From positions 5,148,001-5,212,000 of the forward strand of contig OZ249436.1 of NCBI GenBank assembly GCA_965235115.1: a stretch of DNA of 64,000 nucleotides. Direction: 5' to 3'. This DNA is from Laetmonice hystrix (Eukaryota). Both the position numbers and the translations under genes were made by a program. Below, in pieces: positions 230-36,983 of this stretch; within the stretch, counting starts at the first letter, position 1; every line of letters begins with the position of its first letter. The notes beneath the pieces were generated by a model. That model did not search any database. It was not told where the DNA came from and saw nothing but the letters and a program-made list of their open reading frames with translations.

Positions 230-3200
230 CAAAACTCACCATCGTCCTCTACAACCAGTTCCATCTTCTTCCTGTCTTCCTCGGAGACAGATTTCCATTC
301 ATCGGACCTGCGTTACATCATTATTGTTATGTTTTTATTACAAACCATGATTGCATGGCAAAACAGTCGTTTTAATTTCTTTTAATTTACCCATTGCTCA
401 ATGGGTCATAATATTGTTCTTAAAATATATCATGTTTTTTTGCCTGTGCACATTTTGTCTATGTAAAGGTCTATATACAGCTAGTGTATGACAGACAGGA
501 TTTTAAAGATTGTGTAGGATGGGAGTGGGGGTGGGGGTGGAGGGGGAGAGGGGTAAAAGGCCACAGGCCTTCGATTCATGCTATTCAGTACATCATCCAG
601 GTTTTAGTCCCCTCCCTAGATCCATCATTTCTATAATTATAAGGTTATGCCATCTGATCGGCGTCCTCTCACTCACTCATCACTCCAAGGTCCCGTCCAC
701 TCCGATTTCCCCCATGGATTTCGTAATCGAATCAACTTCACCGACCAACCCTGGATCCGTTGCTGGAAGGCAAGGAAAGGGCTTGCTGAACTGCATCGCA
801 AGATGATTCCAATTGAATAGATAATTGAACGAATTTCATGATGGATTAGAGCAACGATCTCGTCGTGTTGTGAAGAAGGACAATACTCACCTGCATGACA
901 GCGGTGACACTATAGGCATGCCCCTTGTACAGTCCGTTCAATTGACTTACTTGCATGACAGCGGTGACACTATAGGCATGCCCCTTGTACAGTACGTTCA
1001 ATTGACTTACTTGCATGACAGCGGTGACACTATAGGCATGCCCCATGTACAGTACGTTCAATTGACTTACTTGCATGACAGCGGTGACACTATAGGCATG
1101 CCCCTTGTACAGTCCGTTCAATTGACTTACTTGCATGACAGCGGTGACACTATAGGCATGCTCCTTGTACAGCCCGTTCAATTGACTTACTTACATGACA
1201 GCGGTGACACTATAGGCATGCTCCTTGTACAGTCCGTTCAATTGACTTACTTGCATGACAGCGGTGACACTATAGGCATGCCCCTTGTACAGTCCGTTCA
1301 ATTGACTTACTTGCATGACAGCGGTGACACTATAGGCATGCCCCTTGTACAGTCCGTTCAATGGACTTACTTGCATGACAGCGGTGACACTATAGGCATG
1401 CCCCTTGTACAGTCCGTTCAACTGACTTACTTGCATGACAGCGGTGACACTATAGGCATGCCCCTTGTACAGTCCGTTCAATTGACTTACTTGCATGACA
1501 GCGGTGACACTATAGGCATGCCCCTTGTACAGTCCGTTCAACTGACTTACTTGCATGACAGCGGTGACACTATAGGCATGCCCCTTGTACAGTCCGTTCA
1601 ATTGACTTACTTGCATGACAGCGGTGACACTATAGGCATGCCCCTTGTACAGTCCGTTCAACTGACTTACTTGCATGACAGCGGTGACACTATAGGCATG
1701 CCCCTTGTACAGTCCGTTCAATTGACTTACTTGCATGACAGCGGTGACACTATAGGCATGCCCCTTGTACAGTCCGTTCAATTGACTTACTTGCATGACA
1801 GCGGTGACACTATAGGCATGCTCCTTGTACAGCCCGTTCAATTGACTTACTTACATGACAGCGGTGACACTATAGGCATGCTCCTTGTACAGTCCGTTCA
1901 ATTGACTTACTTGCATGACAGCGGTGACACTATAGGCATGCCCCTTGTACAGTCCGTTCAATTGACTTACTTGCATGACAGCGGTGACACTATAGGCATG
2001 CCCCTTGTACAGTCCGTTCAATGGACTTACTTGCATGACAGCGGTGACACTATAGGCATGCCCCTTGTACAGTCCGTTCAACTGACTTACTTGCATGACA
2101 GCGGTGACACTATAGGCATGCCCCTTGTACAGTCCGTTCAATTGACTTACTTGCATGACAGCGGTGACACTATAGGCATGCCCCTTGTACAGTCCGTTCA
2201 ACTGACTTACTTGCATGACAGCGGTGACACTATAGGCATGCCCCTTGTACAGTCCGTTCAACTGACTTACTTGCATGACAGCGGTGACACTATAGGCATG
2301 CCCCTTGTAAAGTCCGTTCAATCGACTTACTTGCATGACAGCGGTGACACTATAGGCATGCCCCTTGTACAGTCCGTTCAATTGACTTACTTGCATGACA
2401 GCGGTGACACTATAGGCATGCCCCTTGTACAGTCCGTTCAACTGACTTACTTGCATGACAGCGGTGACACTATAGGCATGCCCCTTGTACAGTCCGTTCA
2501 ATTGACTTACTTGCATGACAGCGGTGACACTATAGGCATGCCCCTTGTACAGTCCGTTCCATACTCTTTCCTCCTGCGTTTCACCGGTATCATTCTGGAA
2601 AAATGCCATGCAATTTTATCTATATTCCTATCTGTGATCTGTGGGAACCCCATCGACACTAAAGAAGAGGCAGTATATCTATATAGTCTATATGTTCCAT
2701 ATATCTACATGTTCGCTCTAAGAAGAGCTCGACCCCGGCCTCATTAAAGCTAATAATTCATTCGGGGTAATACAGAACCACATGGAATTTGGCCATAATC
2801 TTGAATGACAGGCGGTGATGACTTGTGATACGCCAGCTGTGGGTAGACGGGAGGAGGGGGGCAGGTCAGAGCTTTAATGAGGCCGAGGTCGAGCTCCTCG
2901 TAGAGCGAACAGACTATAGTTAGGCCATAGGATCATTCTCTAGTGGATTTGTTTAATTTTTTTTATTAGGGATGCTAAGGGAATCTGTTAATCTACAATG
3001 TGATTAATGACTTTATTCCCGTGTGTATACTTCTAGTTTTGCTCAATGGTTTGGTATAGTTTACTGATACCACCGTACTCGGATGGAGGCCCCCATCAAG
3101 GAGCCAGCGTTGGTATATACAATGTAGTTGGTATATGGATGGTTCACTGATATCACCGTACTCGGATGGAGGCCCCCATCAAGGAACCAGCGTTGTAAGA

Positions 3201-6200
3201 CTGGAGAACGATATCAAACAGGTCGTCGGGTAGGTCGTCCTCCCGCCGTAGGTTAAAACACTCGGACAATCCACCCGTCAGGTCGACCAGGGCGTCACGG
3301 ATGTGTCCGCTCGAGATCATACCGTAACTACCGTGCAGCCTGCAGTATACAGGAAAGTAAACTTCAAACGAAGGTCCGTGCAGCCTGCAGTATACAGGAA
3401 AGTAAACTTCAAACGAAGGTCCGTGCAGCCTGCAGTATACAGGAAGGAAAACTTCAAACGAAGGTCCGTGCAGCCTGCAGTATACAGGAAGGTAAACTTC
3501 AAACGAAGGTCCGTGCAGCCTGCAGTATACAGGAAGGTAAACTTCAAACGAAGGTCCGTGCAGCCTGCAGTATACAGGAAGGTAAACTTCAAACGGAGGC
3601 CCGTGCAGCCTGCAGTATACAGGAAGGTAAACCAACGAAGGTCCGTGCAGCCTGCAGTATACAGGAAGGAAAACAAACGAAGGTCCGTGCAGCCTGGAGT
3701 ATACAGGAAGGAAATCAAACGAAGGTCCGTGCAGCCTGCAGTATACAGGAAGGAAAACTTCAAACGAAGGTCCGTGCAGCCTGGAGTATACAGGAAGGAA
3801 AACAAACGAAGGTACGTGCAGCCTGCAGTATACAGGAAGGAAAACAAACGAAGGTCCGTGCAGCCTGCAGTATACAGGAAGGAAAACTTCAAACAAAGGT
3901 CCGTGCAGCCTGCAGTATACAGGAAAGTAAACTTTAAACGAAGGTCCGTGCAGCCTGCAGTATACAGGAAGGTAAACTTCAAACGAAGGTCCGTGTAGCC
4001 TGGAGTATACAGGAAAGTAAACTTCAAACAAAGGTCCGTGCAGCCTGCAGTATACAGGAAAGTCAACTTCAAACGGAGGCCCGTGCAGCCTGCAGTATAC
4101 AGGAAAGTAAACTTCAAACGAAGGTCCGTGCAGCCTGCAGTATACAGGAAAGTAAACTTCAAACAAAGGTCCGTGCAGCCTGCAGTATACAGGAAGGAAA
4201 ACTTCAAACAAAGGTCCGTGCAGCCTGCAGTATACAGGAAGGAAAACTTCAAACAAAGGTCCGTGCAGCCTGCAGTATACAGGAAAGTCAACTTCAAACG
4301 AAGGTCCGTGCAGCCTGCAGTATACAGGAAGGAAAACTTCAAACAAAGGTCCGTGCAGCCTGCAGTATACAGGAAGGAAAACTTCAAACAAAGGTCCGTG
4401 CAGCCTGCAGTATACAGGAAGGTAAACTTCAAACAAAGGTCCGTGCAGCCTGCAGTATACAGGAAGGTAAACTTCAAACGGAGGTCCGTGCAGCCTGCAG
4501 TATACAGGAAGGAAAACTTCAAACAAAGGTCCGTGCAGCCTGGAGTATACAGGAAGGTAAACAAACGAAGGTCCGTGCAGCCTGCAGTATACAGGAAGGA
4601 AAACTTCAAACAGAGGAGACCTGCCATGTCGGCATGGTTACAGGAACGTATCATTGGTGCCCGTTTCTTTCCTTGTTCTTAGAGCTTTCTGAGGAAGTCT
4701 CCCAGATTTACACTTTGTTAAGGAAATAATTTGGAGGCTCAGCATGGTCAATTCAGAAAGTTCTATCGGGGAAAAAGAAACATTGGTTGGCAAGGGGCGG
4801 GGGGGGGGGTTAAACCCCTCACCCCCAACACTGTGAGACCATGTCAGGATTTACATTATGTACAGATAGATCTGAAGCACGCTGCGGCCAGTGTCAACTT
4901 AAACCTACTGTGTTGACGCTGATTCAACGAGCGAGTAAAGCTATATTTAGGCCTAATTGTAATCAGTGACATCATTTTGAACCAATCACAGATAGGCACT
5001 GGAACCAATCAGGCCGCAGCGTGAATGAAAGCAGATAGCTGATTGGTTGCTACAAGTGCGGAGTGTGGGCGGGTCGGACAAGTCGGCCATGACGAACATT
5101 CGTCCCACATACGAGTTTACATATCCCTTTAACGCTGGACCAGCGCCTACACCATGGAGTGAGGTGCTGGGCACAGCGTGGATCTGTAGACTTGGGCATG
5201 GACTGACTTGCAATGAAAGTTTGATTATTATACGGTAGCCTACTTGGCGTACGCCTTCTCAAGGAGAGGTGCCCAGAACTCGTTCGGCTGACTCCGGTTC
5301 TGGACAAAGCGCAGCTCGCCGTCCTCATCGACAGGAAGTCTGTCGTCGACCACCACTTCCTCCCATCGTCCGTACCGCCAAATGTTGAACCGGAATGCTC
5401 CTGTATCAAACAACAACCAATCAATCATGTTCGTTATCTGTGGAAAAGCAAAGGCGGTGTCGAGACCAGTTTGATTTCCTAGAAACTCAGACGCTCTCTT
5501 TCCGTAAACAACTTTTGTTCATGCAAGGCCAAAGAAAATGTTTATGTAGGCATGGGTGGCACACCTGGCAAGACTGGGGGGCACACATAAGCCCCGTTTA
5601 CATTACCAAAAAAATAAGGGTGCTCGGTCCGGACCGAGAACGGTAGGCCCCCTACCCCTAAAAAAGTTTGTGTTACATTATCACAAGGTGAGAAATTAAA
5701 CCTTAACTAGGCCAATACATGCATTTTAAACAATGTGCAACATCAATCATACGTAAAGTAGGCTAATAATATAGTGAATATGAACATTTTGAATATGCGT
5801 CTATTCTAATTTAACATACAAGGTAAACGACGTATAGGACTACATGTATATGCGATGTGGAATTGTTAAATTTAATTTTCATGAAGCGTTACGACTGTAG
5901 AGGCCTACCTATGTACTCTGATATGAAGTTCTGCTGAAGTGGCACCACCTGTCGGAATAGTTCGGGTTTGGTGGCCAGGACTGCCGCTGACGCCAAGAAC
6001 CAACAGTCCCCTGAATGATTAAAACAGTATCACCAACTGTGAGATACTATATCAACTGTGATATACACTGTAAAAAAATTCTCAGTAAATTTACGGTAAC
6101 AAGCCTGTGCAGCAATGTTGCCAGCCGAATACTGTAAATTTACATCATACCGTAAAAAAATATCTACCGTCATTTTACGGTGTGAAAATTACGGTGGCCT

Positions 6201-9200
6201 GCCGTAAAAAAATAGTACCGGAATTCCACCGTAATGCCACAGTCATATTCACACCGTAAAATGACGGTAGATATATTTTTACGGTGTACTGTAAATATAC
6301 GGTATTCGGCTGGCAACATTGCTGCACAGTCTCTTTACTGTAAATTTACGTACAGGGTTTCTACCGTAAGGCCTAAACATTTCAACGACCTTCTTTATAC
6401 CGTAGGATTCCATTTATTGTACCGTAAGACAAGAGATTCCTCTACCAGATTTCTACTGTAATTTTACGTGGTAAGCAGTAACTGCATAATGTTACGGTAT
6501 TTTACTGTATATATTAATACAGTTGGTAATCTTGGCAGGGGGCTTCAAACTTTTCATTTGCAAGCTTCGTACTGCTTTCGATGCCATACTCTAACAGGAA
6601 GCACAGTGGTGTCCAAAACAGAATACTTCTTTCTCTGAAAACACTTTAATCAATTACATGATGTAACAGGTGTTACAGGTACAACATGTATAGCTTTCAA
6701 AGTTTAATCCATAAAGGCACAAAAAGGTCTTTCATGATACAAATGCATGACCATGCAATTGGCTTGCTTTGCTAATCACAAAACGTCAAGGCCATTGCTA
6801 AAATTGTTATGCCAAAACAATAAACTTCAACCTCCGGTACATGTGTTACTGGCAATAGTTTTCAAAGTCTGCCTATAAAGGCAAGATAGATCCATAAAGC
6901 CACAAAACAATACAGATAAACGAAAACGAATAATGTCTTAATACAATGTCATGTGTGAATACTGTGTTACTCGTGGGTCATTCCATGTCAAATCGACCAA
7001 TTTTGGAAAATCTTCCCGGGGGACCATCTTCGATTTTTTTCAAATTTGGCATGCAGTTAGACCTGTGTATTTTCAGTACAATCCTAAAATTTTGCTCCAA
7101 AATACCCAACGGTCTCCGAGTTACACCCCGATAAGCGAGGGTGGGGGTACCCCTGAACAAAGCACGTTTAATTCTGAGCCATTTTTAGAGGGCTACCATT
7201 CAGAAACTGTAAGAGCTGGCAACTTGTATTTTTCCCCACTGAAACTTCAATATGTAGAGACCAGGAAAAAGCAATAACATTTTATTTCTTTGCTTATTCC
7301 TTGGAGCACCATGCCCCCCAAAATGGAAAAAAACACATCAGAGAAAAAAAAATTCAATATTCAAACATTTTTCATGCGAAGGTTATTTCTTGTAACTTCT
7401 TGATCTTTGGGGATTTGATTTATGGCTATATGAGGTGCATGCAAACACCAAAATAATCTTCCAAAAATAGACACAGGTGGCGCCACTAGTGGCCAAAGTT
7501 GGCCGATCGCTAAATATGACCCATTTTGAGAGGCCATTTTACCTATGTTGCCAAGGTGGAAGAGCGTTGGGATATTTTTTCTTTGATAGTGCACATTTTT
7601 GCCATTAAAGAAAACTAAGTCCCTAATCCCTTCCATACTTCCTTCCCTGGCAAATAATTTTTCAAATAATATCCATTTTAGTAAAGTTCACGCTGTGACG
7701 GGATATGAGGTACGTTGTTTTTATATCATAAAATTTTTATTATTTGCCAAAGAATTCTTGAAAGTGGTAAATATCCCAAACTGTTGGTCTTTTGTAGATT
7801 TTTGTCTTTAAATTAATTAGTTAATTAATTAATTATAAATAAATTTATAAATTTATTTTAATTAATTAATTTAATTAATTAATTAAATTATTGATTTAAT
7901 AACTTAAAATCATAAAATATAATAATATAAAATAAAATATAAAAATAAATTATAAATTTATTTATAATTAATTAATTACTTTAATAATTAATTTAAATAC
8001 AAAAATCTTCAAAAGACCAACAGTTTAAGCTATTTACCACTTTCAAGAATTCTGTGGCAAATAATAAAAATTTTATGATATAAAAACAATGTACCTCGTA
8101 TCTCGTCACAGCGTGAACTTTACTAAAATGGATATTATTTGAAAAAATATTTGACAGGGAAGGAAGTATGGAAGGGATTAGGGACTTAGTTTTCTTTAAT
8201 GTCAAAAATGTGCTTTATCAAGGAAAAAATATCACAATGCTCTTCCACCTTGGCAACATAGGCAAAATGGCCCCTCAAAATGGGTCATATTTAGCGATCG
8301 GCCAACTTTGGCCACTAGTGGCGCCACCTGTGTCTATTTTTAGAAGATTGTTTTGGTGTTTGCATGCACCTCATATACCCATAAATCAAATCCCCAAAGA
8401 TCAAGAAGTTACAAGAAGGAACTTTTGCATGAAAAATGTTTGAATATTGAATTTGTTTTTCTCCGATGTGTTTTTTTCTATTTTGGGGGGCATGGTGCTC
8501 CAAGGAATAAGCAAAGAAATAAAATGTTATTACTTTTTCCTTGTCTCTACATATTAAAGTTTCAGTGGGCAAAAATACAAGTTGCCAGCTCTTATAATTT
8601 CTGAATGGTAGCCCTCTAAAAACGGCTCAGAAAAAGAAACGTTTTTTTCAGGGGTACCCCCACCCAAACTCATGGGGGTATAACATGGGAACCGTTGGGA
8701 ATTTGGAAGAAAAATTTCAGAAATGTACTTCAGATATATAGATCTAACTACATGCCAAATAAGAAAAAAATTGGAGATGGTCACCCGGGAGCCACTGGTC
8801 GATTTGACATGGAATGACCCTCGTAATACTTTTAAAGTTTGATCCCTTTTAAGGCACAAAAAGGTCTTCCATGATTCGAATGAATATTCATTTTGGCATA
8901 ATTAGCTTCGTTGCTATTAAATGCTAAGGTGGTTGCTAAAGTAATTAATAAGAAAACCATGAACTCAAACTGTAGTACGGGCAATAGTTATCAAAGTTTG
9001 ATCCATAAAAGGCACAAAAAGGTCTTCCATGATACATATGCATGAACATGTAATTTGCTTCATTAATAACAAAACGCAAAGGTGGTTGCGTAATTTACCA
9101 GTACATATGTTACTAGAAATACATGTAAAAATGCTGACAAATGCAGAATTTTCCTCATCCGCCACGTACTTATCAATAAACCATTGGAAGTCCACCCATG

Positions 9201-12200
9201 TAACTATACGTCAAGATTTTTAAATATCAGATCTCTGCTTAAAGTTAAACGTTCTGTATGTCAGTTTTAAATACAATCCAATACGGTATACAATAGTACT
9301 TCACCCACTGGTGTACTACCCACTGGTGCTACGTACTAAGTCCACTCTTCATTTGGAATCTGTAAATACACAAATTCAAAAACAACGATGAACCATTTAA
9401 GACGAAGTTAATGGACAGAATCATGGCGTTTCAGTGTTTGGGTTCAGTTAACCTATTAGTTATCAGAAACAAAATGCTGTCTAATCTAAAAAGATACATT
9501 TTTCATGCTTTGTTCTGAAAGCTAAATAAATAAATTCCTTTGAAGTATACATGTATACTCATAAGCTTACCACATATTTGGGAGCCACTGCTGGTTGGAA
9601 ACTTCATTGATCAGCTTCAAGACCTTTGGGTTGACGGTGTAGGGTTTCTTTCTCCTTTCCACCCTTAAACCCTTTTCTGGGTTAATACCCACAAGGCACC
9701 TGTAATCACATCTCATACATTAGTCAAATGGCACCTGGGAAAAAATTCTTTTTGATTATATTGTTTTGTTACCTTTAAATGAAGTTACTTCAGAAAAAGA
9801 CAAACATAGAAAAAAAAAATCAAAAATACCTTTGGATAAATTCTAGGGTTGCGGCCACTTTGGGGCTGTAGTGGAAATTGAATACGTAAAATGCCCCAAA
9901 CACCATACAAATGGCTTTGGTGAGATCAGTCAGTCTTGTAACTGGCCTGCCCTCAATCACAACGACATACGTGCAATCTAGTGGGTTTCCTGTAAAGAGA
10001 GAAGTAACCTTCATTGTACAAAAGATGTATACTTTCTTCCACGTCAATGCACATTTGACAGAAACCATTAATATGTTTAAATAGTCACGTGTACAATGTA
10101 AGTTATCAAGTCATTATTTTAAAGTCTGGCATTTATAAACACATACCGAGTGCAAGAAGGAAGGGCGTTTTGGGAATTAGTTCATCTTTGAGAACTTCTT
10201 GAACCTTGGCGGAGGCCTTAAAATCGAAGTATGAATGAATAATTTCAAAAACATACAAAAACATAAAAGAAATAACAATAATATAACATTATTACAATAT
10301 ATTTGCTCTACAGCATTTAACCATTACTTGTTTAACTTTCGAGGTAAATGGCCAAGAAGCCCTTTTTAATGAAGGTTTACTGTATGCAATTAACAAGAGT
10401 ACCAATTGATATAAAATAACAAAACTGAGATAATCAACTGAATGTTGGAATATAAAGAAATTGAATAATGTAACATATTGAATCAACATTGGCAAGCTTA
10501 ACAATAAAGTCAAACTGAACAATAAAAGCAGTGTAGGTAAATGGGGTTCAACCAAAACAACAAAGATTATCTCCCTGACCCCCCCCCCCCCCCCCCCCCC
10601 CCACAGATCTTTTGACACTGCAATTCAAAACTAGATCTATAGTTAACGTAACAGTCTAGCCTCCCCGCCCCCCCCCCCCCCCCCTAGTCATGAGTAGGCT
10701 AACCAAGGCATGGGGCCGCACAGCCCCCCCCCCCCCCCAATACTAAGACCTGATTGATATTAGGCCTAGGCCTATAGACATCACATAGTACTATACAGGG
10801 GTGTAGGAAAAGGGGCGGCCAGGGGGGCCATATCCCCCACTTTGAAATGTGAGGGTGGGGCCAGCAGGGGTGTAGGCAGAACTGAGAATATAAGGGGGGG
10901 GGGTTCCAACTGAGATGGGGGGGATCCCAACCATAATATTAGTTATTCATTTAGACAGATCTATTTATTTGGTTATTAAATATTATTATCTATTAGAGTC
11001 TAATCTTTTTAGGGGGAGGGGGGTTCCAGGCAACCGGAAACCCCCGAGATGGGGGGTGGGGGGATCCCACCCATAATATTAGTCATTCATTTAGATCTAT
11101 TTCAGTATTTGGTTATTATCTATTAGAGTCTAATCTTTTTTTTTTTGGGGGGGGGGGGGGGGGATTCGAGGGGGGTTCCAGGCAACCCGGAAACCCCCCT
11201 GGCTACATCCTTGGCCAGAGCATCTTTTGCTCCCTCCCCTTTTTAATCATATAGGCTACCTTAGGCTGATGGACTCATTTGCCTCCCCCCCCCCCCCCCA
11301 TCCCCACCCCACACAGACACTTTTCATGGCCCTCCCTAGTCCCTACGCCCCTGCACTGCTGCAGTAACGGCACTAAATTTTCTAAAAGTTAAAACGATGG
11401 CAGGTATACTCCACATCGTCTACACAAAATAGCCAAGCCAAGCCCCTGAAGTTTCAGCAGGTTGTAGATCTATTAGGTACCCTAATGTTATATAGCCTTA
11501 TAATAGTGGCTTATAGGCCTAACGTTAACGTTCCTCGTTAGCCTACATTCGTTGTGAGTCTGGAACGTACGCAGGCTAGTCTAACGTTAGCCTAGGCCTA
11601 CGTGTTACCAGCCGCTGGTCTAGACACGCGACAGGTTTACCCATCCAGGGCCGGAGCCGGGGGGCACCCCCCCCCCCCCCCTTAGAAAACACAATTAAAT
11701 CTAACTTAAACTTACCACACAATGTCACCGTCGTCCATCTTGCTTCAGTGTGTGCTTGCCTTCGGCTTCACGTCGACTCCAATATGGCCGTTTGAGCGGG
11801 AACTACACTTGTGACGTCACATAAACCCGGATGTAGGCAACGGGGGTCAGTAAAATTACGGTAGAAAATCAGTTGTGACGTCATCGATATCGGCGCTAGC
11901 TAAGACCAAAAAGAAGCGTTTCCTTCCGAAAGATGGCGCTTCACACACCAATGTGACACGCAGCACAGCTGGCATTCTATGAGTATGAAAATGGGGAAAA
12001 GGGGGACATCATGCCCAGCTATGTATAGGCCTATGTATGGCAGCCTAGCCTAGGCTAAGGCCAACTTGGGAGCTCGGCTAGATAGGTCTAGAGGCTGAGC
12101 TAGCTGCGGGCTATCAAAGCCAGGCCAAAGAACTTGGCTATGGGGGGGGGGGGGGGGGCTAGGCCTACTAATCTACGGTAGGTACCTGTAGGCCTATAGT

Positions 12201-14419
12201 ATTAGATGATCGATGATCTATTCTAGGCTAATGCACTCTTTGGCCAGGCTTAGGGCGGACCGGTTAGACTACCTATTAGTAGCCTATAGGCTACGTCTAG
12301 TAGGCCTATAGGCCATCTAGCCAGTGCCTAGATCTAGACTCTATACTATAGTGGAGTGGAGTTTTGCCGTCAAGAACAGTAGGCTATATTATGTCCCTAT
12401 CCTGAATGAGACTCTATGGCCTGTTGTTACGGTAATTTTTGGCTATTTGGTAATTTTACGGGACAACTCCGTAACTTAGTTTAGGCTACCTACTGGGTGT
12501 CTACCGTAAGTCTTGAATATAGGCCGTTTTCAACCTCCAAAACGGCGAAAAAATGGTAAATACGGGGTTTTCCCCGTCAACTCCTAATAACGGTAACATT
12601 CTGTAATACCTTAACGGTATTTTTACTGTAAGTTTGCCGTTAAGAACAGTAAACACGGTATTTTTTGCTTTACGGGACAAGTCAGTAATTTTTTACAGGG
12701 TTTCTACCGTAAATCACGAATTTGGCCCGTTTTCCACCTGCATAACGGTGAATAACACTAGTTACGGGGGGTTTCCCGTTAATTTATACGAACGGTAAGA
12801 TTCCGTAATATTTTAACTGTATTTTTACCGTAAGTCTGCCGTTATTTTTTACAGTGTACCGTATCAACTGTGTTATACCGTATCAACGTGATATACCCTA
12901 ACAATGGTGATATACCATATCAACTGTGATATACCGTAACAGTGGTGATATACCATATCAACGGTTAGATACCGTAACAATGGAAATATAGACTACCATA
13001 TCAACGGTTATAGACCGTAACAATGATGGTATACCATATCAAAGGTGATATACCGTAACAATGGTATACCATATCAACGGTTGGATACCGTAACAATGGC
13101 GATATGACGATTAATGATCTTATTACATCAAATAGAAGTTTCAAGATTGTATTGTCGTGCTTGAACATTGAGTCAGACTTACCCAAACTCCCCTGCGCCA
13201 GGTCGAAGCGCGTCGCCCCATGGACAAAGAATTTTGGTGGCCGTTTGGTGATTTCCTATCATTATAAGAAAATTTCTGATATCACCCTTTTATTGTACTT
13301 TGATTTTGAGATTATGAGGACTTTTTCAGAAACAGGGAAGACCTACAGATTTGAATCGAGATTTCAAGGATTGAGCTGAAGAAACCATTTTTGGGCCTAT
13401 CATAACTGCATGTGATCAACATTATATCATTATATTACACCTAAATAAGACTAGTATTGTAAAGATGCTCCATCTGGATCCATGCACCAAACCTGGCTAC
13501 AGTCTGGGCTACTGCTCAGCGTACTCGGCGCAGCAAGGGCTACGATGTAGTTTTAAAAAAACTCATAATAAATGGCAAATTCTAGCCGGGCATTGGGGTG
13601 AATGGATCGGGCAGACAAGGCGCTGAAGTCTCTGGGAGGTTACCCGCCCCATGGGGTGGTACCCTGACCCTACTCCACCCCACCCAACCCCCAGCTCCTG
13701 GAGCAGTACGGGGACGGGCGCAGGAGATAAACAAAAATATGAATGACTCATCATCTTTTTCCCACCACTGCATGGGAAGGAGAAATCCCCCAGTCTACCT
13801 TTGTTTCTACCCAAAGGTTTCCAACGTGTTATAACGGTTCAGGTATAATACAGAATTATTTTGTAGAAAGTAGCTTAAATATCAAATTTACGTTGAATCA
13901 TGGGTTTTGGGGTAGGGGCCGGTTTTGAGAGGTGCTGAAGGAAGAATTAAAGCCATTAGTTAGAATTCATTCTATTCTCCTATAAATATAGCCTGCTGCA
14001 CGATTATTTTTCCGAAATAAGCCAATGTGGGATATGCTGCCTCAATCACTCCTCATCCTGTGTTATGAACTCAAACAAAACACTAATTAAAAAATTAAAA
14101 GGAGTTTCGTGAAAAACGTGAGCATGCGGCGGGTTACGGTGACGGATCCATGGTGGGAGATTGACTTTTGAGGGGAAATACAGTGTGACAACTCCACTTA
14201 AACGATCTGTCCCCCCTCCCCCCATCTACTCCTGCATTGGCCCATGTCAGGATCGAGTACACCTTGCACACTCACCCTGGGCCTCCTCCACTCCCGGCGG
14301 CCGGGGTCGATGTCGTAGACGGAGATGGACTCGTTCGTAGCTGGGAAGTCTGGATCCTCCCACAGCCGGGCTGTCCGCATAGGCCTACATTTCTCCTTGA
14401 TCTCCTCAAAGGTCGGCAT
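230..14419 (-). CDS. Calpain (CysPc protease domain), 5' part; gene continues beyond the left window edge
   Basis: Manually spliced exons (minus strand, all GT-AG, phases consistent): 14419-14276 (MPTFEEIK...WEDPDFPA...WRRPR), 13255-13183 ([17 protein letters not shown]), 6010-5909 (GDCWFLAS, catalytic Cys), 5400-5244 ([23 protein letters not shown]...[14 protein letters not shown]), 3339-3162 (LHGSY...DLTGG), 2594-2511 (GHAYSVT, catalytic His), 762-677 (RLRNPWG, catalytic Asn), 307-230 (DDGEFW). These are canonical calpain motifs; the subfamily cannot be assigned. Confidence 0.96.
885..2558. repeat. 60-bp tandem array, 28 copies, made of the calpain exon-6 3' end plus its 5' splice site
   Basis: Minus-strand unit GAACGGACTGTACAAGGGGCATGCCTATAGTGTCACCGCTGTCATGCAA|GTAAGTCAATT. 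Variants recur at 660-bp spacing (1161/1821, 1191/1851, 1361/2021). Confidence 0.98.
2682..2918. mobile_element. Small inverted-repeat element (MITE-like)
   Basis: gttcgctctaagaagagctcgaccccggcctcattaaagct (2711-2751) is the near-perfect reverse complement of agctttaatgaggccgaggtcgagctcctcgtagagcgaac (2870-2910); outer ends tagtct/agacta. Confidence 0.6.
3063..3194. repeat. Two-copy duplication (83-bp period) of the calpain exon-5 3' end plus donor
   Basis: actgata(c/t)caccgtactcggatggaggcccccatcaagga(g/a)ccagcgttg at 3063 and 3146. Confidence 0.9.
3331..4611. repeat. 45/42-bp tandem array, about 29 copies, made of the calpain exon-5 acceptor plus first 9 exon nt
   Basis: Minus-strand unit ACCTTCGTTTGAAGTTTACTTTCCTGTATACTGCAG|GCTGCACGG; the copy at 3331 continues into exon 5 (LHGSYG). 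Confidence 0.97.
6975..8820. mobile_element. Foldback element with about 900-bp inverted arms, nested in the CACTA element (Sola2-like by termini and TSD)
   Basis: GGGTCATTCCATGTCAAATCGACCA at 6975 and TGGTCGATTTGACATGGAATGACCC ending 8820; 4-bp TSD TCGT (6971-6974, 8821-8824). Arms mirror each other in to an AT-only centre near 7810-7990. The family call rests on my recollection that Sola2 has GRG termini and a 4-bp TSD. Confidence 0.85.
9571..10216 (-). pseudogene. Spliced C-terminal remnant of a transposon accessory gene (SAMD3-like C-terminus by recollection)
   Basis: Phase-consistent exons 10216-10147 ([23 protein letters not shown]), 9989-9830 (GNPL...[24 protein letters not shown]) and 9699-9571 ([10 protein letters not shown]...[17 protein letters not shown]). 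The stop is formed on splicing to an acceptor at 9360. The N-terminal part is missing. Confidence 0.65.
11760..11945. promoter_or_regulatory. Promoter-like motif cluster inside the CACTA element
   Basis: GGGAACTACA, two TGACGTCA (CRE) palindromes (about 11812, 11876), CCGGATGT (ETS-like) and AAGATGGCG (YY1-like) within about 150 bp; a minus-strand donor TG|GTAAGT at 11715 lies just downstream. Confidence 0.5.
12857..13103. repeat. Degenerate host micro-repeat (ataccgtaacaatggtgatataccatatcaacggt-like), split by the CACTA insertion
   Basis: Repeated ataccgtaaca / ataccatatcaac motifs; matching tatcaactgtgatata motifs at 6028-6065 on the other side of the element. Confidence 0.8.
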
Positions 14420-19260: not shown

Positions 19261-19959
19261 TTTCGCCATTTGTCACCTTTTACGAACAGCCGGGGGTTGA
19301 AGTGAGGATCATTCTTACCTCTGATCCCCAAGGGAGTCTCATTCGGAGATGACTAAACTGCTGGTGATAACTGGGGATAGAAGTAATTATTGAAGAAAAG
19401 GTTGCAATATTTTTTACCGTGCCTGAATTTGTATGGACCTCGAACGTGCAGGTCAATGTTGTGGACGTTAAATAGAATGTATTTTGCCTAATTACGCCAC
19501 GCTGAATCAGCACCAGACGCTGATCGGAGCGTGAATTACGCATGCGCAATGTACCGGTATAGACAAAGCTCTGAAGTTAATATCGATTTTCTGCTTATTT
19601 TCTGGAACAAGTATAAAAGATGGCAACAATAAATGTACAAATTCTGTTACCCATTTTGTATCGGTCCTCTAAGTTGTCGGACGTAAGGAGGCGAAGTTCG
19701 TTTGTGTTCATTTTGTGAGGATACCCAGATGTGATAACTGTCACACCAATGTAGATTTACCAGGGAGAAACAAATCTTAGATTGGATGCGAACTTTCAGA
19801 TGGATGTGTGAGCCAACTCCGCAACGTAATTTGTCGGCGAAACACTTCCCATTTACAGATTAGAGGGACGATACGAACGAGGACAATCGAACACAGGATC
19901 AATATCCGAGAGACGCTCCCTTTGACCTTGACCTCCAGCTTCTGGTCGCCATCCCGTCC

Positions 19960-22900
19960 CCGGTCTGTGACGAGTGAGTCTGAGGGCGGTCAATGGTATC
20001 ATGGACGGGCTGGGGGTCGGGGAAGGCGGCCCCTCGGTCTGTGACGAGTGAGTCTATGGGTGGTCAATGGTATGGACGGGCTGGGGGTCGGGGAAGGCGG
20101 CCCTCGGTCTGTGACGAGTGAGTCTGAGGGCAGTCAATGGTATGGACGGGCTGGGGGTCGGGGAAGGCGGCCCTCGGTCTGTGACGAGTGAGTCTGAGGG
20201 CGGTCAATGGTATGGACGGGCTGGGGGTCGGGGAAGGCGGCCCTCGGTCTGTGACGAGTGAGTCTGAGGGCGGTCAATGGTATCATGGACAGGCTGGGGG
20301 TCGGGGAAGGCGCCCCTCGGTCTGTGACGAGTGAGTCTGAGGGCGGTCAATGGTATGGACGGGCTGGGGGTCGGGGAAGGCGGCCCTCGGTCTGTGACGA
20401 GTGAGTCTGAGGGCGGTCAATGGTATGGACGGGCTGGGGGTCGGGGAAGGCGGCCCTCGGTCTGTGACGAGTGAGTCTGAGGGCGGTCAATGGTATGGAC
20501 GGGCTGGGGGTCGGGGAAGGCGGGCATGGACGGGCTGGGGGTCGGGGAAGGCGGCCCTCGGTCTGTGACGAGTGAGTCTGAGGGCGGTCAATGGTATCAT
20601 GGACAGGCTGGGGGTCGGGGAAGGCGCCCCTCGGTCTGTGACGAGTGAGTCTGAGGGCGGTCAATGGTATGGACGGGCTGGGGGTCGGGGAAGGCGGCCC
20701 TCGGTCTGTGACGAGTGAGTCTGAGGGCGGTCAATGGTATGGACGGGCTGGGGGTCGGGGAAGGCGGCCCTCGGTCTGTGACGAGTGAGTCTGAGGGCGG
20801 TCAATGGTATGGACGGGCTGGGGGTCGGGGAAGGCGGCCCTCGGTCTGTGACGAGTGAGTCTGAGGGCGGTCAATGGTATCATGGACGGGCTGGGGGTCG
20901 GGGAAGGCGGCCCCCGGTCTGTGACGAGTGAGTCCGAGGGCGGTCAATGGTATGGACGGGCTGGGGGTCGGGGAAGGCGGCCCTCGGTCTGTGACGAGTG
21001 AGTCCGAGGGCGGTCAATGGTATGGACGGGCTGGGGGTCGGGGAAGGCGGCCCTCGGTCTGTGACGAGTGAGTCTGAGGGCGGTCAATGGTATGGACGGG
21101 CTGGGGGTCGGCCCTCGGTCTGTGACGAGTGAGTCTGGGGCGGTCAATGGTATGGACGGGCTGGGGGTCGGGGAAGGCGGCCCTCGGTCTGTGACGAGTG
21201 AGTCTGAGGGCGGTCAATGGTATGGACGGGCTGGGGGTCGGGGAAGGCGGCCCTCGGTCTGTGACGAGTGAGTCTGAGGGCGGTCAATGGTATGGACGGG
21301 CTGGGGGTCGGGGAAGGCGGCCCTCGGTCTGTGACGAGTGAGTCTGAGGGCGGTCAATGGTATGGACGGGCTGGGGGTCGGGGAAGGCGGCCCTCGGTCT
21401 GTGACGAGTGAGTCTGAGGGCGGTCAATGGTATGGACGGGCTGGGGGTCGGGGAAGGCGGCCCTCGGTCTGTGACGAGTGAGTCTGAGGGCGGTCAATGG
21501 TATGGACGGGCTGGGGGTCGGGGAAGGCGGCCCTCGGTCTGTGACGAGTGAGTCTGAGGGCGGTCAATGGTATGGACGGGCTGGGGGTCGGGGAAGGCGG
21601 CCCTCGGTCTGTGACGAGTGAGTCTGAGGGCGGTCAATGGTATGGACGGGCTGGGGGTCGGGGAAGGCGGCCCTCGGTCTGTGACGAGTGAGTCTGAGGG
21701 CGGTCAATGGTATCATGGACGGGCTGGGGGTCGGGGAAGGCGGCCCCCGGTCTGTGACGAGTGAGTCTGAGGGCGGTCAATGGTATGGACGGGCTGGGGG
21801 TCGGGGAAGGCGGCCCTCGGTCTGTGACGAGTGAGTCTGAGGGCGGTCAATGGTATCATGGACGGGCTGGGGGTCGGGGAAGGCGGCCCTCGGTCTGTGA
21901 CGAGTGAGTCTGAGGGCGGTCAATGGTATGGACGGGCTGGGGGTCGGGGAAGGCGGCCCTCGGTCTGTGACGAGTGAGTCTGAGGGCGGTCAATGGTATG
22001 GACGGGCTGGGGGTCGGGGAAGGCGGCCCTCGGTCTGTGACGAGTGAGTCTGAGGGCGGTCAATGGTATGGACGGGCTGGGGGTCGGGGAAGGCGGCCCT
22101 CGGTCTGTGACGAGTGAGTCTGAGGGCGGTCAATGGTATGGACGGGCTGGGGGTCGGGGAAGGCGGCCCTCGGTCTGTGACGAGTGAGTCTGAGGGCGGT
22201 CAATGGTATGGACGGGCTGGGGGTCGGGGAAGGCGGCCCTCGGTCTGTGACGAGTGAGTCTGAGGGCGGTCAATGGTATGGACGGGCTGGGGGTCGGGGA
22301 AGGCGGCCCTCGGTCTGTGACGAGTGAGTCTGAGGGCGGTCAATGGTATGGACGGGCTGGGGGTCGGGGAAGGCGGCCCTCGGTCTGTGACGAGTGAGTC
22401 TGAGGGCGGTCAATGGTATGGACGGGCTGGGGGTCGGGGAAGGCGGCCCTCGGTCTGTGACGAGTGAGTCTGAGGGCGGTCAATGGTATGGACGGGCTGG
22501 GGGTCGGGGAAGGCGGCCCTCGGTCTGTGACGAGTGAGTCTGAGGGCGGTCAATGGTATGGACGGGCTGGGGGTCGGGGAAGGCGGCCCCCGGTCTGTGA
22601 CGAGTGAGTCTGAGGGCGGTCAATGGTATGGACGGGCTGGGGGTCGGGGAAGGCGGCCCTCGGTCTGTGACGAGTGAGTCTGAGGGCGGTCAATGGTATG
22701 GACGGGCTGGGGGTCGGGGAAGGCGGCCCTTGGTCTGTGACGAGTGAGTCTGAGGGCGGTCAATGGTATCATGGACGGGCTGGGGGTCGGGGAAGGCGGC
22801 CCTCGGTCTGTGACGAGTGAGTCCGAGGGCGGTCAATGGTATGGACGGGCTGGGGGTCGGGGAAGGCGGCCCTCGGTCTGTGACGAGTGAGTCTGAGGGC

Positions 22901-25402
22901 GGTCAATGGTATCATGGACGGGCTGGGGGTCGGGGAAGGCGGCCCTCGGTCTGTGACGAGTGAGTCTGAGGGCGGTCAATGGTATGGACGGGCTGGGGGT
23001 CGGGGAAGGCGGCCCCCGGTCTGTGACGAGTGAGTCTGAGGGTGGTCAATGGTATGGACGGGCTGGGGGTCGGGGAAGGCGGCCCTCGGTCTGTGACGAG
23101 TGAGTCTGAGGGCGGTCAATGGTATGGACGGGCTGGGGGTCGGGGAAGGCGGCCCTCGGTCTGTGACGAGTGAGTCTGAGGGCGGTCAATGGTATGGACG
23201 GGCTGGGGGTCGGGGAAGGCGGCCCTCGGTCTGTGACGAGTGAGTCTAAGGGCGGTCAATGGTATGGACGGGCTGGGGGTCGGGGAAGGCGGCCCTCGGT
23301 CTGTGACGAGTGAGTCTGAGGGCGGTCAATGGTATGGACGGGCTGGGGGTCGGGGAAGGCGGCCCTCGGTCTGTGACGAGTGAGTCTGAGGGCGGTCAAT
23401 GGTATCATGGACGGGCTGGGGGTCGGGGAAGGCGGCCCTCGGTCTGTGACGAGTGAGTCTGAGGGCGGTCAATGGTATGGACGGGCTGGGGGTCGGGGAA
23501 GGCGGCCCTCGGTCTGTGACGAGTGAGTCTGAGGGCGGTCAATGGTATGGACGGGCTGGGGGTCGGGGAAGGCGGCCCTCGGTCTGTGACGAGTGAGTCT
23601 GAGGGCGGTCAATGGTATGGACGGGCTGGGGGTCGGGGAAGGCGGCCCTCGGTCTGTGACGAGTGAGTCTGAGGGTGGTCAGTGGTATGGACGGGCTGGG
23701 GGTCGGGGAAGGCGGCCCTCGGTCTGTGACGAGTGAGTCTGAGGGCGGTCAATGGTATGGACGGGCTGGGGGTCGGGGAAGGCGGCCCTCGGTCTGTGAC
23801 GAGTGAGTCTGAGGGCGGTCAATGGTATGGACGGGCTGGGGGTCGGGGAAGGCGGCCCTCGGTCTGTGACGAGTGAGTCTGAGGGCGGTCAATGGTATGG
23901 ACGGGCTGGGGGTCGGGGAAGGCGGCCCTCGGTCTGTGACGAGTGAGTCTGAGGGCGGTCAATGGTATGGACGGGCTGGGGGTCGGGGAAGGCGGCCCTC
24001 GGTCTGTGACGAGTGAGTCTGAGGGCGGTCAATGGTATGGACGGGCTGGGGGTCGGGTAAGGCGGCCCTCGGTCTGTGACGAGTGAGTCTGAGGGCGGTC
24101 AATGGTATGGACGGGCTGGGGGTCGGGGAAGGCGGCCCCCGGTCTGTGACGAGTGAGTCTGAGGGCGGTCAATGGTATGGGCGGGCTGGGGGTCGGGGAA
24201 GGCGGCCCCCGGTCTGTGACGAGTGAGTCTGAGGGCGGTCAATGGTATGGACGGGCTGGGGGTCGGGGAAGGCGGCCCCCGGTCTGTGACGAGTGAGTCT
24301 GAGGGCGGTCAATGGTATGGGCGGGCTGGGGGTCGGGGAAGGCGGCCCCCGGTCTGTGACGAGTGAGTCTGAGGGCGGTCAATGGTATGGACGGGCTGGG
24401 GGTCGGGGAAGGCGGCCCTCGGTCTGTGACGAGTGAGTCTGAGGGCGGTCAGTGGTATGGACGGGCTGGGGGTCGGGGAAGGCGGCCCTCGGTCTGTGAC
24501 GAGTGAGTCTGAGGGCGGTCAATGGTATGGACGGGCTGGGGGTCGGGGAAGGCGGCCCTCGGTCTGTGACGAGTGAGTCTGAGGGCGGTCAATGGTATGG
24601 ACGGGCTGGGGGTCGGGGAAGGCGGCCCTCGGTCTGTGACGAGTGAGTCTGAGGGCGGTCAATGGTATGGACGGGCTGGGGGTCGGGGAAGGCGGCCCCC
24701 GGTCTGTGACGAGTGAGTCTGAGGGTGGTCAATGGTATCATGGACGGGCTGGGGGTCGGGGAAGGCGGCCCTCGGTCTGTGACGAGTGAGTCTGAGGGCG
24801 GTCAATGGTATGGACGGGCTGGGGGTCGGGGAAGGCGGCCCTCGGTCTGTGACGAGTGAGTCTGAGGGCGGTCAATGGTATGGACGGGCTGGGGGTCGGG
24901 GAAGGCGGCCCTCGGTCTGTGACGAGTGAGTCTGAGGGCGGTCAATGGTATGGACGGGCTGGGGGTCGGGGAAGGCGGCCCTCGGTCTGTGACGAGTGAG
25001 TCTGAGGGCGGTCAATGGTATCATGGACGGGCTGGGGGTCGGGGAAGGCGGCCCCCGGTCTGTGACGAGTGAGTCTGAGGGCGGTCAATGGTATGGACGG
25101 GCTGGGGGTCGGGGAAGGCGGCCCTCGGTCTGTGACGAGTGAGTCTGAGGGCGGTCAATGGTATGGACGGGCTGGGGGTCGGGGAAGGCGACCCTCGGTC
25201 TGTGACGAGTGAGTCTGAGGGCGGTCAATGGTATCATGGACGGGCTGGGGGTCGGGGAAGGCGGCCCTAGGTCTGTGACGAGTGAGTCTGAGGGCGGTCA
25301 ATGGTATGGACGGGCTGGGGGTCGGGGAAGGCGGCCCTCGGTCTGTGACGAGTGAGTCTGAGGGCGGTCAATGGTATCATGGACGGGCTGGGGGTCGGGG
25401 AA
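19960..25402. repeat. GC-rich 70-bp minisatellite, roughly 77 copies, 5.4 kb
   Basis: Unit cggtctgtgacgagtgagtctgagggcggtcaatggtatggacgggctgggggtcggggaaggcggccct, with 73-bp (+cat) and truncated variants. Confidence 0.98.
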
Positions 25403-30550: not shown

Positions 30551-33166
30551 AGCACGCGACACCGTAAGCGTGTGTAGGAGATATTCCCGTTTGTAATGTC
30601 ACAATGATGGAGAGCGTTCGAGCGGCCCCTCGTCCTCCTCTGTTTACTTATGATCGAGGGAGTTGGGATGTACCACCCACCGGGACCTTCTGATCGAGGA
30701 CGTCAGTCTGTGCTGGTATACCACATGATCGAGGGCCTTCCATGTCTGGCCGACCACCCTCTGCACACCGGTGTCAGTATCAAAGCGAAGAATCCTGTCA
30801 CAGCCATGGTGTTGCCAACCTGGGGAATCTCAAAATTCCTGACTCGTTCACGGACGCCGCATTCTGTTCGCGGGCCCATCCTCCGGAAGATACAGGTCTT
30901 TCATTATGATTCAAAAATACATTGATTTTTAAATCAAAGAGTATGAAATAAAGTATGACAAGTCTTTCAGGATGGAAAATACTGAACTCCAGACGTAATT
31001 CCTGGAATTCTGGAGGTTTTCGACGTTTTTTTTTTTTTTTGGTCGGATTCCGGACCTCTTGAAAATGTGGCCTAAAATTCCGGAGGTTTGGGTAATAATT
31101 CCGGATGGCTGGTATCACTGCACAGTGATAACATCAGACGTACTGTTGATATCTCGACGTCATCGGCCTGGCGTGGATCCTCGTGGTCGACCTGCACAGG
31201 ACGAAAAGAAAACGCAAAATGTTGCCAGCTTGATAGAAAATAAAACCTTTTTCGATTATTTATGTCAGTTTATTCATTGTGGCTTCTGATGTTGCTTTCA
31301 GAAAGGTACAGGGGCCTAGAATTTTATTGATACCGGGAGTCACGCAATCAGTCAGTGCAGTCCTGCATGTACGGCCGTTTTACAGCTCAATGCTCAGATA
31401 CAATGTTGTTCGACCTGATGTGTAATGTGTGTAAACCTGAATGGTAGTCTGGGGACACACCCACAGAGAGATCTATCAGACTTGTGTCCCCGAAGGCTCC
31501 TTTGATATACGCCACAGATCAAATGGCAAATGGTTTGGTCCCTCTAATCGGAGCCATATGTAATGTGTCAGTGAAAGACCAGACCATCCGGTTTGATCTG
31601 CCCGTGGGTGAGTACAGGGGTGCGTGTAGATTATATCATTCTGATTTTGTATAATGCAGCCGTCGTACAAGATAATATCTAACCATAGACGTGATCAAAC
31701 CTACCCCTACTACCCCAACGTCACGTGAAACACACAGAGAATCCATCTGCGATTGGAGAGTGGCGGTCAGGAAATCCTCACGACATCGGCCCGTCCCCTC
31801 CACACGTCAATATAACAAGGTTGGCTTCCAGACAGCTGATGGCTAGTTCCACGTCCATTATTGGTAAAGGGGCAAAGTTGACCAGAGTCAATTTTTTAGT
31901 GTCAAGTAGCAATCTCGTTATGTCGAGGGAGGCAGGAACACCCTTGGACAACATGTGCCTTGAATACTGATTGTCGGGTTGGAAGGCCCAAGCAGTAGTT
32001 CCACGATCAGTGGGTGGTGTCGTTGGCTTGGCTAAAGATATCCTGACGCCTCTTTTTTAAAGAAAGCCCTAGCCCCATCCTCCAGGTTACCTACTTCATG
32101 AAGGAAATGACTGACCCCGTATAAACTATATCCACGACCCACCATCACTGACAGACTGAATGCTCTAGCTCGCGTTGAGTAACGGCCGAGATTCACCACG
32201 CATCCCCCAGAAACTTCCCAGAAACAAGCCCTGCAGGGCATAAATGGTTTTTGACCATTTTTAAAGCCACATGGTATATCCTCTTTGCCCCTGCTGCCTG
32301 AGTGGACGACCTTAGCGGAGAAGGTCGATCCAGAGGTCAACTGTGGCCTGCAAGGGACAGAAGCATTTTCAGCAGCAGGAGCCTTGTAACGTCATGAGAA
32401 TATCGCCACCAGCAGGATTAGATTACCTTAGGCCTCTACATATTATACATCTCAAATTGATACGAGTTTGAGTTTGCCCTATACATCTCAAATTGATCTG
32501 AGTCAGGATATATATCATAAAATCATTAGAATTCGTTCCACCATTTCAGTACAAACACACACACACAAAGAATAATTTATTACATGAACCATGGTTTATG
32601 AAAATAGGCCCCGACACCGTACAAGCTGACATAATCAGCCATACATTAAATGGTTGCAGTCCGATTTTTTCAGCAATTGCATCCCCTCTTGTATAATACA
32701 AGTTAATGATTCACGAATATGCCTACAAATCACCATGTTTAAACCACAATAGGGTTTCATATTGACAAGAGTAGAAATTTAAGTTAAAAGGTTTCGGCGG
32801 GAACCAACAACATACTCATTCACTGCTCACCCTCCCAGACACGTAGATAACCCATCCGTACAAAAGTAATATAACCGCTACATTTTCTATTGTATAGATC
32901 TAACCAGAATATATATGTTTTAACTTCAGTTCGTAGTTCCGAACTATTGTTGGCCTGTCGAGTCAACCATCAACGATGTGGAACCTACATATATTAGGAA
33001 AATATTCGCCAACATAGAGCTATCTAGAGATCGATTATTAGTATTAATTAAGGAGACAGGAAAACTCCGGCATAGACCTAGGCCATGCCAAATAATGTGA
33101 TCTGTTCAATTTGTATATTTGTACAGGGTCGACAGATGTTGCAGTACAAATCTCCCGTATCCCAAC

Positions 33167-36100: not shown

Positions 36101-36983
36101 AAGCCCTGTTATTTTACTAGCCGCCTGTGTCATCAAATTACCTGCGGTGATTTTCGCCGCACCATTTTATGTTTTTCCATGTTTCACTTTTTTCTATGAA
36201 CTGTTCATGAACCAGGGGAATTTCCTAAAGGTATCTAACTGTAACAGTGCGGGGTGTAGAATTGTCATCTCTTTTATCTTTAGTGTTGGGGTCTTGTTGT
36301 CGCTTGGGTTATGCCTGTCATTTAGCTTTTTGTATGGTAGCATGGTTGTCTTTGCCTTCGTAGACGTTGTCCGTAATCTAAGGACCAACGTCAACCATGG
36401 TGTCCTCTTTGTGTCAGTGTTGCTGTATGTCCAGAACGCATTTGTGAGACTTGAAGACCAGTACAGAACAATGAAGAAGACAATCTTCAAAGTATGCAAA
36501 GAAATTGACGAAGAGATCACATCTCCTGCTGCAGGGCCGAACCGAAACAGACTCATCTGGACGTCAAGGAATGGAGAGAAGGCAGTACCTAAAAACCTTT
36601 TTATAGGAGTTTGCAACCGTCACCGGCCTTATTCCAGCCAGCTGCTGAGAACCTGCTTCATACTTCTTCTCAATCTATCCCTTGTGTTTTTCTTGTACGT
36701 CCTAGTTATTGATTTTCAGGCGCTTGACCAATTTACGGGTATCGGCCAGAGCCTGATGACCATTTTCACAGTCAGTCTTCCAGGACTTATAGGAAAACTG
36801 AGGTCGGAGGCGGCTGCAGCACTGGACGAGGCACGCCTTTTTGGCAAGGTCAAGGCTACCGTCAAGGACATTGTACAAGATCAAAATGAAGACGGTTCTG
36901 AAAATGACGTCGGAAAGAGCAACAGCTTGGGAAATATTTGGCGGCGGGAACCCTTTGAACGTGAGAATCAGGAATGGGTGTGA
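33167..36983 (+). CDS. Uncharacterised multipass membrane protein with signal peptide, about 1015 aa, two coding exons
   Basis: Exon 33167-34473 (donor AG|GTATGC, phase 2) joins in frame to exon 35243-36983 (acceptor tgtttcag|). N-terminal MHAIILIAALVLCVNC signal-like peptide, Cys- and N-glycosylation-site-rich ectodomain, TM LILLFVNIGSYLIVLVFPLL, a polar loop, then about 7 more hydrophobic segments. An acceptor at 33126 implies upstream UTR exon(s). Confidence 0.88.

Follow-up and report, generated by a model that had tools for sequence, protein, structure and literature searches.

Here we show that the end of a calpain exon carrying the catalytic His motif, together with its splice donor, is repeated in tandem into the following intron, so that 28 donors stand 60 nt apart on the minus strand of the stretch of DNA that was analysed (64,000 nucleotides, hereafter the window). 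The array is a large and clear instance of an already known class of repeat. With a probability of roughly 0.78 we read it as a splice-junction minisatellite ('mirage') of the human F7 IVS7 type, a tolerated by-product of repeat instability in which the first donor gives the main mRNA. An earlier sequence-only reading of the same DNA had offered either a tunable or decoy array of donors or a neutral expansion tolerated as the proximal donor wins, and the second of these options gives the best fit to the evidence presented here.

Read runs and simulations

Four read runs (X1-X4) of one heterozygous sample, none of them recorded as RNA, were compared as contigs over positions 2451-3400. Across this interval X1-X3 behave as DNA. 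X4 is taken as RNA-like because it contains a spliced joint and gives no cover of unique intron; the joint runs from 3162, the end of calpain exon 5 (3162..3339, minus strand), to 2594, has CT..AC ends, and occurs in one contig and only in X4 of the four runs. It is important to note that X4 represents a single sample and that the depth of its contigs says little about expression. Simulations of the X4 pattern assumed the read length, the fragment size, a bubble rule, and the haplotype of the window only.

The calpain gene

Coding exons 1-8 of the gene (the protease core) occupy 230..14419 on the minus strand, and the gene continues past the left end of the window. The eight exons (14419-14276, 13255-13183, 6010-5909, 5400-5244, 3339-3162, 2594-2511, 762-677, and 307-230) are flanked by AG and GT and, once joined, read as an open frame of 300 codons, in which the Cys, His, and Asn motifs of calpains follow in order at residues 69, 236, and 260. 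The best matches of the gene are calpains, with exon 4 at 60-72% identity and none of the hits being a close orthologue; matches of exon 6 in the PDB are calpain-9, -5, -1, and -2, the best of them at E 0.072 for a short piece. Exon 6 (2511..2594, minus strand, 84 nt, phase 0/0) carries the catalytic His motif, is open in the joined frame, and ends at donor 1, CAA/GTAAGT (the slash marks the exon border). Exon 7 (677..762, minus strand, 86 nt) carries the catalytic Asn motif. Exons 7-9 of human CAPN3 are 84, 86, and 78 nt long, and the same sizes in exons 6-8 here would presumably make intron 6 ancient.

Two further exon borders of this gene are duplicated. The exon 5 donor has a second copy (3061..3161, minus strand, x2 with an 83-nt period), and exon 5 is preceded by an array of 29 acceptors (3340..4611, minus strand; units of 45/42 nt), all of them in frame and with no stop. 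The fully open frame of this acceptor array over 1.2 kb is perhaps due to chance.

Several other features within the calpain gene were recorded. Positions 2707-2930 in intron 5 belong to a high-copy interspersed element, whose depth in X1-X3 exceeds that of single-copy sequence by a factor of thousands and which also occurs in X4. Heterozygous sites occur in and near exon 5 (3153-3312) in X1 and X2, and the X4 contig carries the window's allele. Within the 7.2-kb intron 2, and on the same strand as calpain, lie pieces that resemble exons in their AG/GT borders and short open frames (9300-11780, minus strand); they may represent a nested or transposon-borne gene. By eye, 6980-8820 is a long and imperfect inverted repeat whose centre (7807-7999) is AT-rich; it resembles a foldback or MITE-like element.

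Structure and sequence of the donor array

The last exon bases preceding the 28 donors lie at 2511, 2451, and so on at 60-nt steps to 891, and TRF reports a repeat at 885-2559 with a period of 60, 27.9 copies, 97% matches, and 0% indels. The sequence-only reading had described 28 in-frame donors at this spacing, and all of its coordinates hold. Exon 6 is followed by 27 additional units of 60 nt (891..2510, minus strand), and a donor stands at the end of every one; unit contigs exist in X1-X3 and in X4. The units are head-to-tail and of minisatellite size, and the end unit spans the true exon 6/intron 6 border; each combines 11 nt resembling the intron start with a copy of the final 49 nt of exon 6. 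The donor is GTAAGT in 27 of the 28, and the distal one is CAG/GTGAGT. The catalytic-His peptide recurs with each donor, as first proposed, but its sequence varies among units (G>E in four, G>V in two, K>M in one, Q>P in two, and Q>R in one). The distal copy adjoins the unique part of intron 6 (763..890, minus strand), which begins GTGAGT, measures 128 nt to the exon 7 acceptor (890-763), as previously noted, and is the probable pre-expansion intron.

A transcript spliced at any of donors 1-11 would contain no stop within the array, one spliced at donors 12-22 would contain one, and one spliced at donors 23-28 would contain two. As had been recognised from the sequence, the first in-frame stop is a TAA variant before donor 12 (1851..1853, minus strand), a second TAA copy follows 11 units away (1191..1193, minus strand), and the more distal donors would accordingly produce premature stops. 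The two stops represent one mutation, later duplicated, because three marker variants (TAA, CC, and E/GGG), each present twice, recur together at an 11-unit (660-bp) spacing. The units have evolved in concert, with the distal edge unit left out of the process, as it differs at position -1 and in its intron start.

These features bear on a reading in which the array is a selected, tunable ladder or decoy, extra His segments tuning or poisoning the protease and the TAA units sending longer forms to decay. The in-frame unit, the lack of indels in 28 copies, the 11 stop-free donors, and an apparent change of the unit from 58 to 60 nt all speak for such a ladder. Set against them, the His peptide and the open frame in the units are largely inherited, because 49 of the 60 nt are a copy of exon 6, and the two stops amount to one event. 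On this and the evidence given below we hold a selected ladder to be quite improbable. The same low standing applies to its specific form, in which donors 2-11 would be used at a regulated, measurable rate, the resulting calpains would contain the catalytic-His strand in 1-10 additional copies, and the TAA units would route longer forms to decay. The minisatellite would then work as a length dial for the active site of the protease, and in other tissues the in-frame acceptor array of this gene might act alongside it.

Donor strength was scored with a matrix built from 34 donors of the window (range 3.3-11.7 bits), on which the array copies reach 11.3 bits and the distal donor 11.7. Folding of exon 6 with three units showed no sign of an RNA structure masking the donors (z -1.46). 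A search among three candidates, itself a weak one, returned no protein with tandem His segments at E<=0.001.

The read runs also speak to whether the array could be an artefact of assembly. The copy number of 28 is a count in the assembly, the contigs of the reads (from one sample) are collapsed, and no read contig spans the array. Against an artefact, the units carry ordered variants, and in the DNA-like runs X1-X3 the unit contig stands at 11-22 times the depth of nearby single-copy contigs, a rough figure and not a copy number. A contig with the TAA variant is present in each of X1, X2, and X3 at about a tenth of the unit depth, near the 2/27 expected. An artefact is thus extremely unlikely.

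Sites used in the RNA-like run

The spliced contig of X4 (contig 26) is 509 nt long and matches the window at 3339-3162 and 2594-2530; by length, its remaining 266 nt would fit exons 4 and 3 plus 7 nt. Its match to the window stops precisely at position 3339, the exon-proximal acceptor, and exon 5 is spliced from its first donor (3162). X4 gives no cover of the acceptor array at 3347-3400 or of 2931-3154, and the second copy of the exon 5 donor is likewise uncovered. At both other calpain duplications, therefore, it is the exon-proximal site that gives the mRNA in X4. Since an array of 29 in-frame, stop-free acceptors is nevertheless uncovered over the part compared (3347-3400), such an architecture does not imply use. 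A selected ladder could draw on the neighbouring acceptor array being likewise in frame and open, and on the presence of donor-array sequence in RNA (see below), but the absence of RNA-like cover from that acceptor array counts against it.

At the donor array the X4 contig graph breaks. A 49-nt shared contig (2511-2559) has a depth of 40.9 by bin arithmetic, an exit contig at 2451-2480, which extends past the edge of the compared interval, has a depth of 36.3, and a unit contig has a depth of 10. The unit contig ends at 2540/2470 in X4 and at 2541/2452 in X2 and X3. With k=31, and hence 30-nt overlaps, these ends mean that the RNA path diverges downstream of the -1 A, whereas the DNA path diverges upstream of that base, at the point where the G of the distal copy leaves the repeat. 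If the contig overlaps are read in this way, they imply that RNA leaves the array through a CAA donor and not through the distal CAG; the exit contig would then join exon 7. Because the 49-nt segment is shared, the exit is not assignable to donor 1 among the CAA donors.

The branch point weighs directly on the idea that the distal CAG/GTGAGT donor is the one normally used, which would render the array exonic and the gene dead or decayed. While the distal donor scores slightly higher (11.7 against 11.3 bits) and is probably the old donor, its product would carry two stops, the RNA branches after the -1 A, the eight exons show no other break in their frame, and a spliced contig is present in X4. 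We find normal use of the distal donor highly improbable.

Exclusive use of the donor at 2511, which the sequence-only reading had named as the observation that would dismiss a functional ladder, was not obtained. X4 contains an array-junction contig (2470-2540, depth 10), while the calpain acceptor array is uncovered, and a ladder is to that extent not refuted. Inclusion of array sequence in RNA is therefore not nil, and it is specific to intron 6. DNA carry-over into X4 looks too small to account for it, as the X4 to X2 depth ratio is 0.002 in the lowest repeat-element bin, a rough value. The array RNA represents intron retention or minor use of further donors; the contigs separate neither from the other and do not give levels, and the balance leans towards a minority share. 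The X4 junction is of the CAGTT type, found at 7 of the 27 junctions, the majority (17 of 27) being of the CAATT type. The TAA variant was not seen in X4, where only about 1x depth would be expected of it.

In the simulations, the X4 pattern was reproduced in about 6% of 600 runs by whole-intron retention at 2-3%, in 28% when 10% of transcripts made spread use of donors 2-11, in 16% when 5% of transcripts made spread use of donors 2-27, and in at most 1% by a ladder restricted to next neighbours. A retention level of 2-3% suffices to explain the observed depth, since every molecule that keeps the intron contributes 27 junctions.

These results bear most directly on a leaky but unselected ladder, in which donors 2-11 would serve in more than about 20% of transcripts and add useless 20-residue inserts, and donors 12 and beyond would lead to NMD. 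Such leakage would agree with the array-junction contig of X4 being of the variant type enriched among junctions 2-8, and with all copies being strong donors at 11.3 bits; there is also human precedent for it (see below). Its next-neighbour form is poorly matched by the simulations, however, the other two calpain duplications show use of the proximal site only, and the observed depth is accounted for by 2-3% intron retention. A leaky ladder on this scale is unlikely.

Border duplications in the rest of the window

Border duplication is not special to the His exon, as other exon borders in the window are duplicated as well. Duplicated borders make up 6 of the 68 homology-supported exon borders of the calpain gene and a DUOX gene. 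The latter (dual oxidase; 42667-63853, minus strand) has at least 28 exons, of which 27, from 63450 to 42667, join into an open frame of 1509 codons. It contains a donor array (46266-46491, minus strand; 56-nt x4), an acceptor array (55844-57349, minus strand; 50-59-nt x28), and an acceptor duplication (62765-62914, minus strand; 76-nt x2). Two further arrays in DUOX end within 7 nt of a border (42800-43432 and 63178-63260). In addition, a GC-rich array of about 78 copies of a 70-nt unit (19961-25402, plus strand) begins at the putative donor GA/GTGAGT of an exon near 19860-19974, an exon without homology support.

Among TRF arrays with a period of at least 25 in calpain and DUOX, 5 of 11 straddle a border, compared with 1.3 expected (P about 0.005), and with calpain intron 2 left out the figure is 5 of 9 (P 0.007); the test is post hoc, its period threshold having been picked after the data were seen. 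Enrichment was assessed at the level of arrays because the per-position test is weak (6/68 borders against 51/1221 intron positions outside border arrays, or 324/1500 with them included). Unit lengths of the border repeats are 60, 83, 45, 56, 50, 76, and 70 nt, of which two of seven are in frame (P(>=2)=0.74). An excess of frame-keeping units, which would be a sign of selection, is thus not seen in this small sample, which includes the 70-nt array lacking homology support. The proposal of a tunable ladder as a selected feature therefore fares poorly: five of the seven units in the window are out of frame, the calpain acceptor array is uncovered in X4, and the stops are one duplicated mutation.

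The best matches of DUOX are in Capitella and Owenia, and it is 49% identical to the Branchiostoma protein. In a quick tree of 28 rows it falls in a four-row group with Capitella and two other proteins (SH-aLRT 99), with Owenia outside. Judged by its DUOX sequence, the host lineage is annelid-like and not lancelet. Elsewhere in the window, 33101-34489 and 35232-36983 (plus strand) are open frames of 462 and 583 codons from stop to stop; the second has several hydrophobic stretches, and the two are probably large exons of one membrane-protein gene.

Origin and maintenance of the array

The unique intron start and exon 6 share a 6-nt word at a distance of 58 nt, and a match of 6 nt was reached in none of 186 control donor-by-register trials. 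This suggests a microhomology-seeded duplication of 58 nt that later gained 2 nt. It also lends support to the earlier proposal that the distal copy is the ancestral donor: that copy probably keeps the old intron start, in which case the array would have overwritten the donor that is used today.

The events leading to the present array may then be reconstructed as follows. The 6-nt microhomology probably seeded a short tandem duplication spanning the exon 6/intron 6 border; this would have produced a unit of about 58-60 nt, which unequal exchange would have amplified and homogenised, the 11-unit block duplication being visible in the sequence. Presence of the His peptide and a donor in every copy would be a by-product of a unit that ends in the last 49 nt of the exon. 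The spliceosome would mostly take the first donor after the exon's acceptor, as F7-type precedent and the contig pattern indicate, so that the main mRNA would encode a normal calpain and array sequence would reach a minority of RNA, either because the intron is retained or because splicing leaks to donors beyond the first. On this account the array is tolerated rather than selected.

Relation to known systems

The closest precedent is the 37-bp VNTR in intron 7 of F7, in which repeated identical donors are present and only the most upstream is normally used, by oriented scanning (Borensztajn et al. 2006, PMC1557585, from the part of the text available). As in calpain, the first F7 unit spans the exon/intron border and the donor is repeated down the intron, and according to the same portion of that source the normal restriction to the most upstream donor extends to cases in which splicing at further sites would leave the frame intact. 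The F7 array comprises 5-9 units, each with 4 exon bases, compared with 28 units and 49 exon bases each here. Unlike in F7 as described there, the calpain unit is in frame, contains a catalytic residue, and contributes array sequence to an RNA-like run.

Other human donor arrays of 10-25 copies resemble the one reported here and differ in how strictly the first site is used. In the available part of PMC1557585, human 6-16 (25 pseudo-sites) and CBS intron 13 are cited as also using two further sites, and the minisatellites of lamin B2 and PDGF intron 4 as confined to the first site. The precedent for leak referred to above is this splicing of 6-16 and CBS at the one or two pseudo-sites that come next. 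In human ABCA7 the intron 18 VNTR also adjoins a donor, and transcripts that read through it are spliced at donors within the intron and acquire premature stops; unlike the calpain array, it has a 25-bp unit and is described as adjacent, not as copies of an exon end, in the accessible text (PMC13747324).

Lancelet 'mirage' minisatellites are reported in Adh3, troponin C, and the globins BflGb6/9 (PMC3087553) and in PGBD5 (PMC3902484), with splicing undisturbed according to the accessible portions of these papers. As here, they are tandem copies of a border on either the donor or the acceptor side that evolve in concert with the edge units left out, and those of PGBD5 include 60-bp and 108-bp units at 5' splice sites (PMC3902484, same portion). 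Their host is a lancelet, unlike the annelid-like host of the calpain array. That the class is documented as splice-neutral, in the available parts of PMC3087553, PMC1557585, and PMC3902484, is a further point against a selected ladder. A literature search that covered few subscription papers found no annelid splice-junction minisatellite in print, and the accessible part of a paper retrieved for annelids and minisatellites (PMC12783039) contains no border-spanning donor array. A gene-name search for human VNTRs that modify splicing likewise returned no papers.

Implications

Within its class the calpain array is set slightly apart by an in-frame unit with a catalytic residue and by the presence of array sequence in an RNA-like run. 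It is a convenient natural setting in which to examine, in a non-mammal, whether the 'first donor wins' rule holds: 27 strong donors of nearly identical sequence compete with the first, their use would read out in frame, and a stop is present as an internal marker. Because the coding end of exon 6 appears to be homogenised with the array, that process could transfer array variants, the TAA and G>E units among them, to the true exon, and splice-border arrays could in this way be a local source of null alleles. Were the ladder both real and regulated, it would represent a new way to vary the active site of an enzyme.
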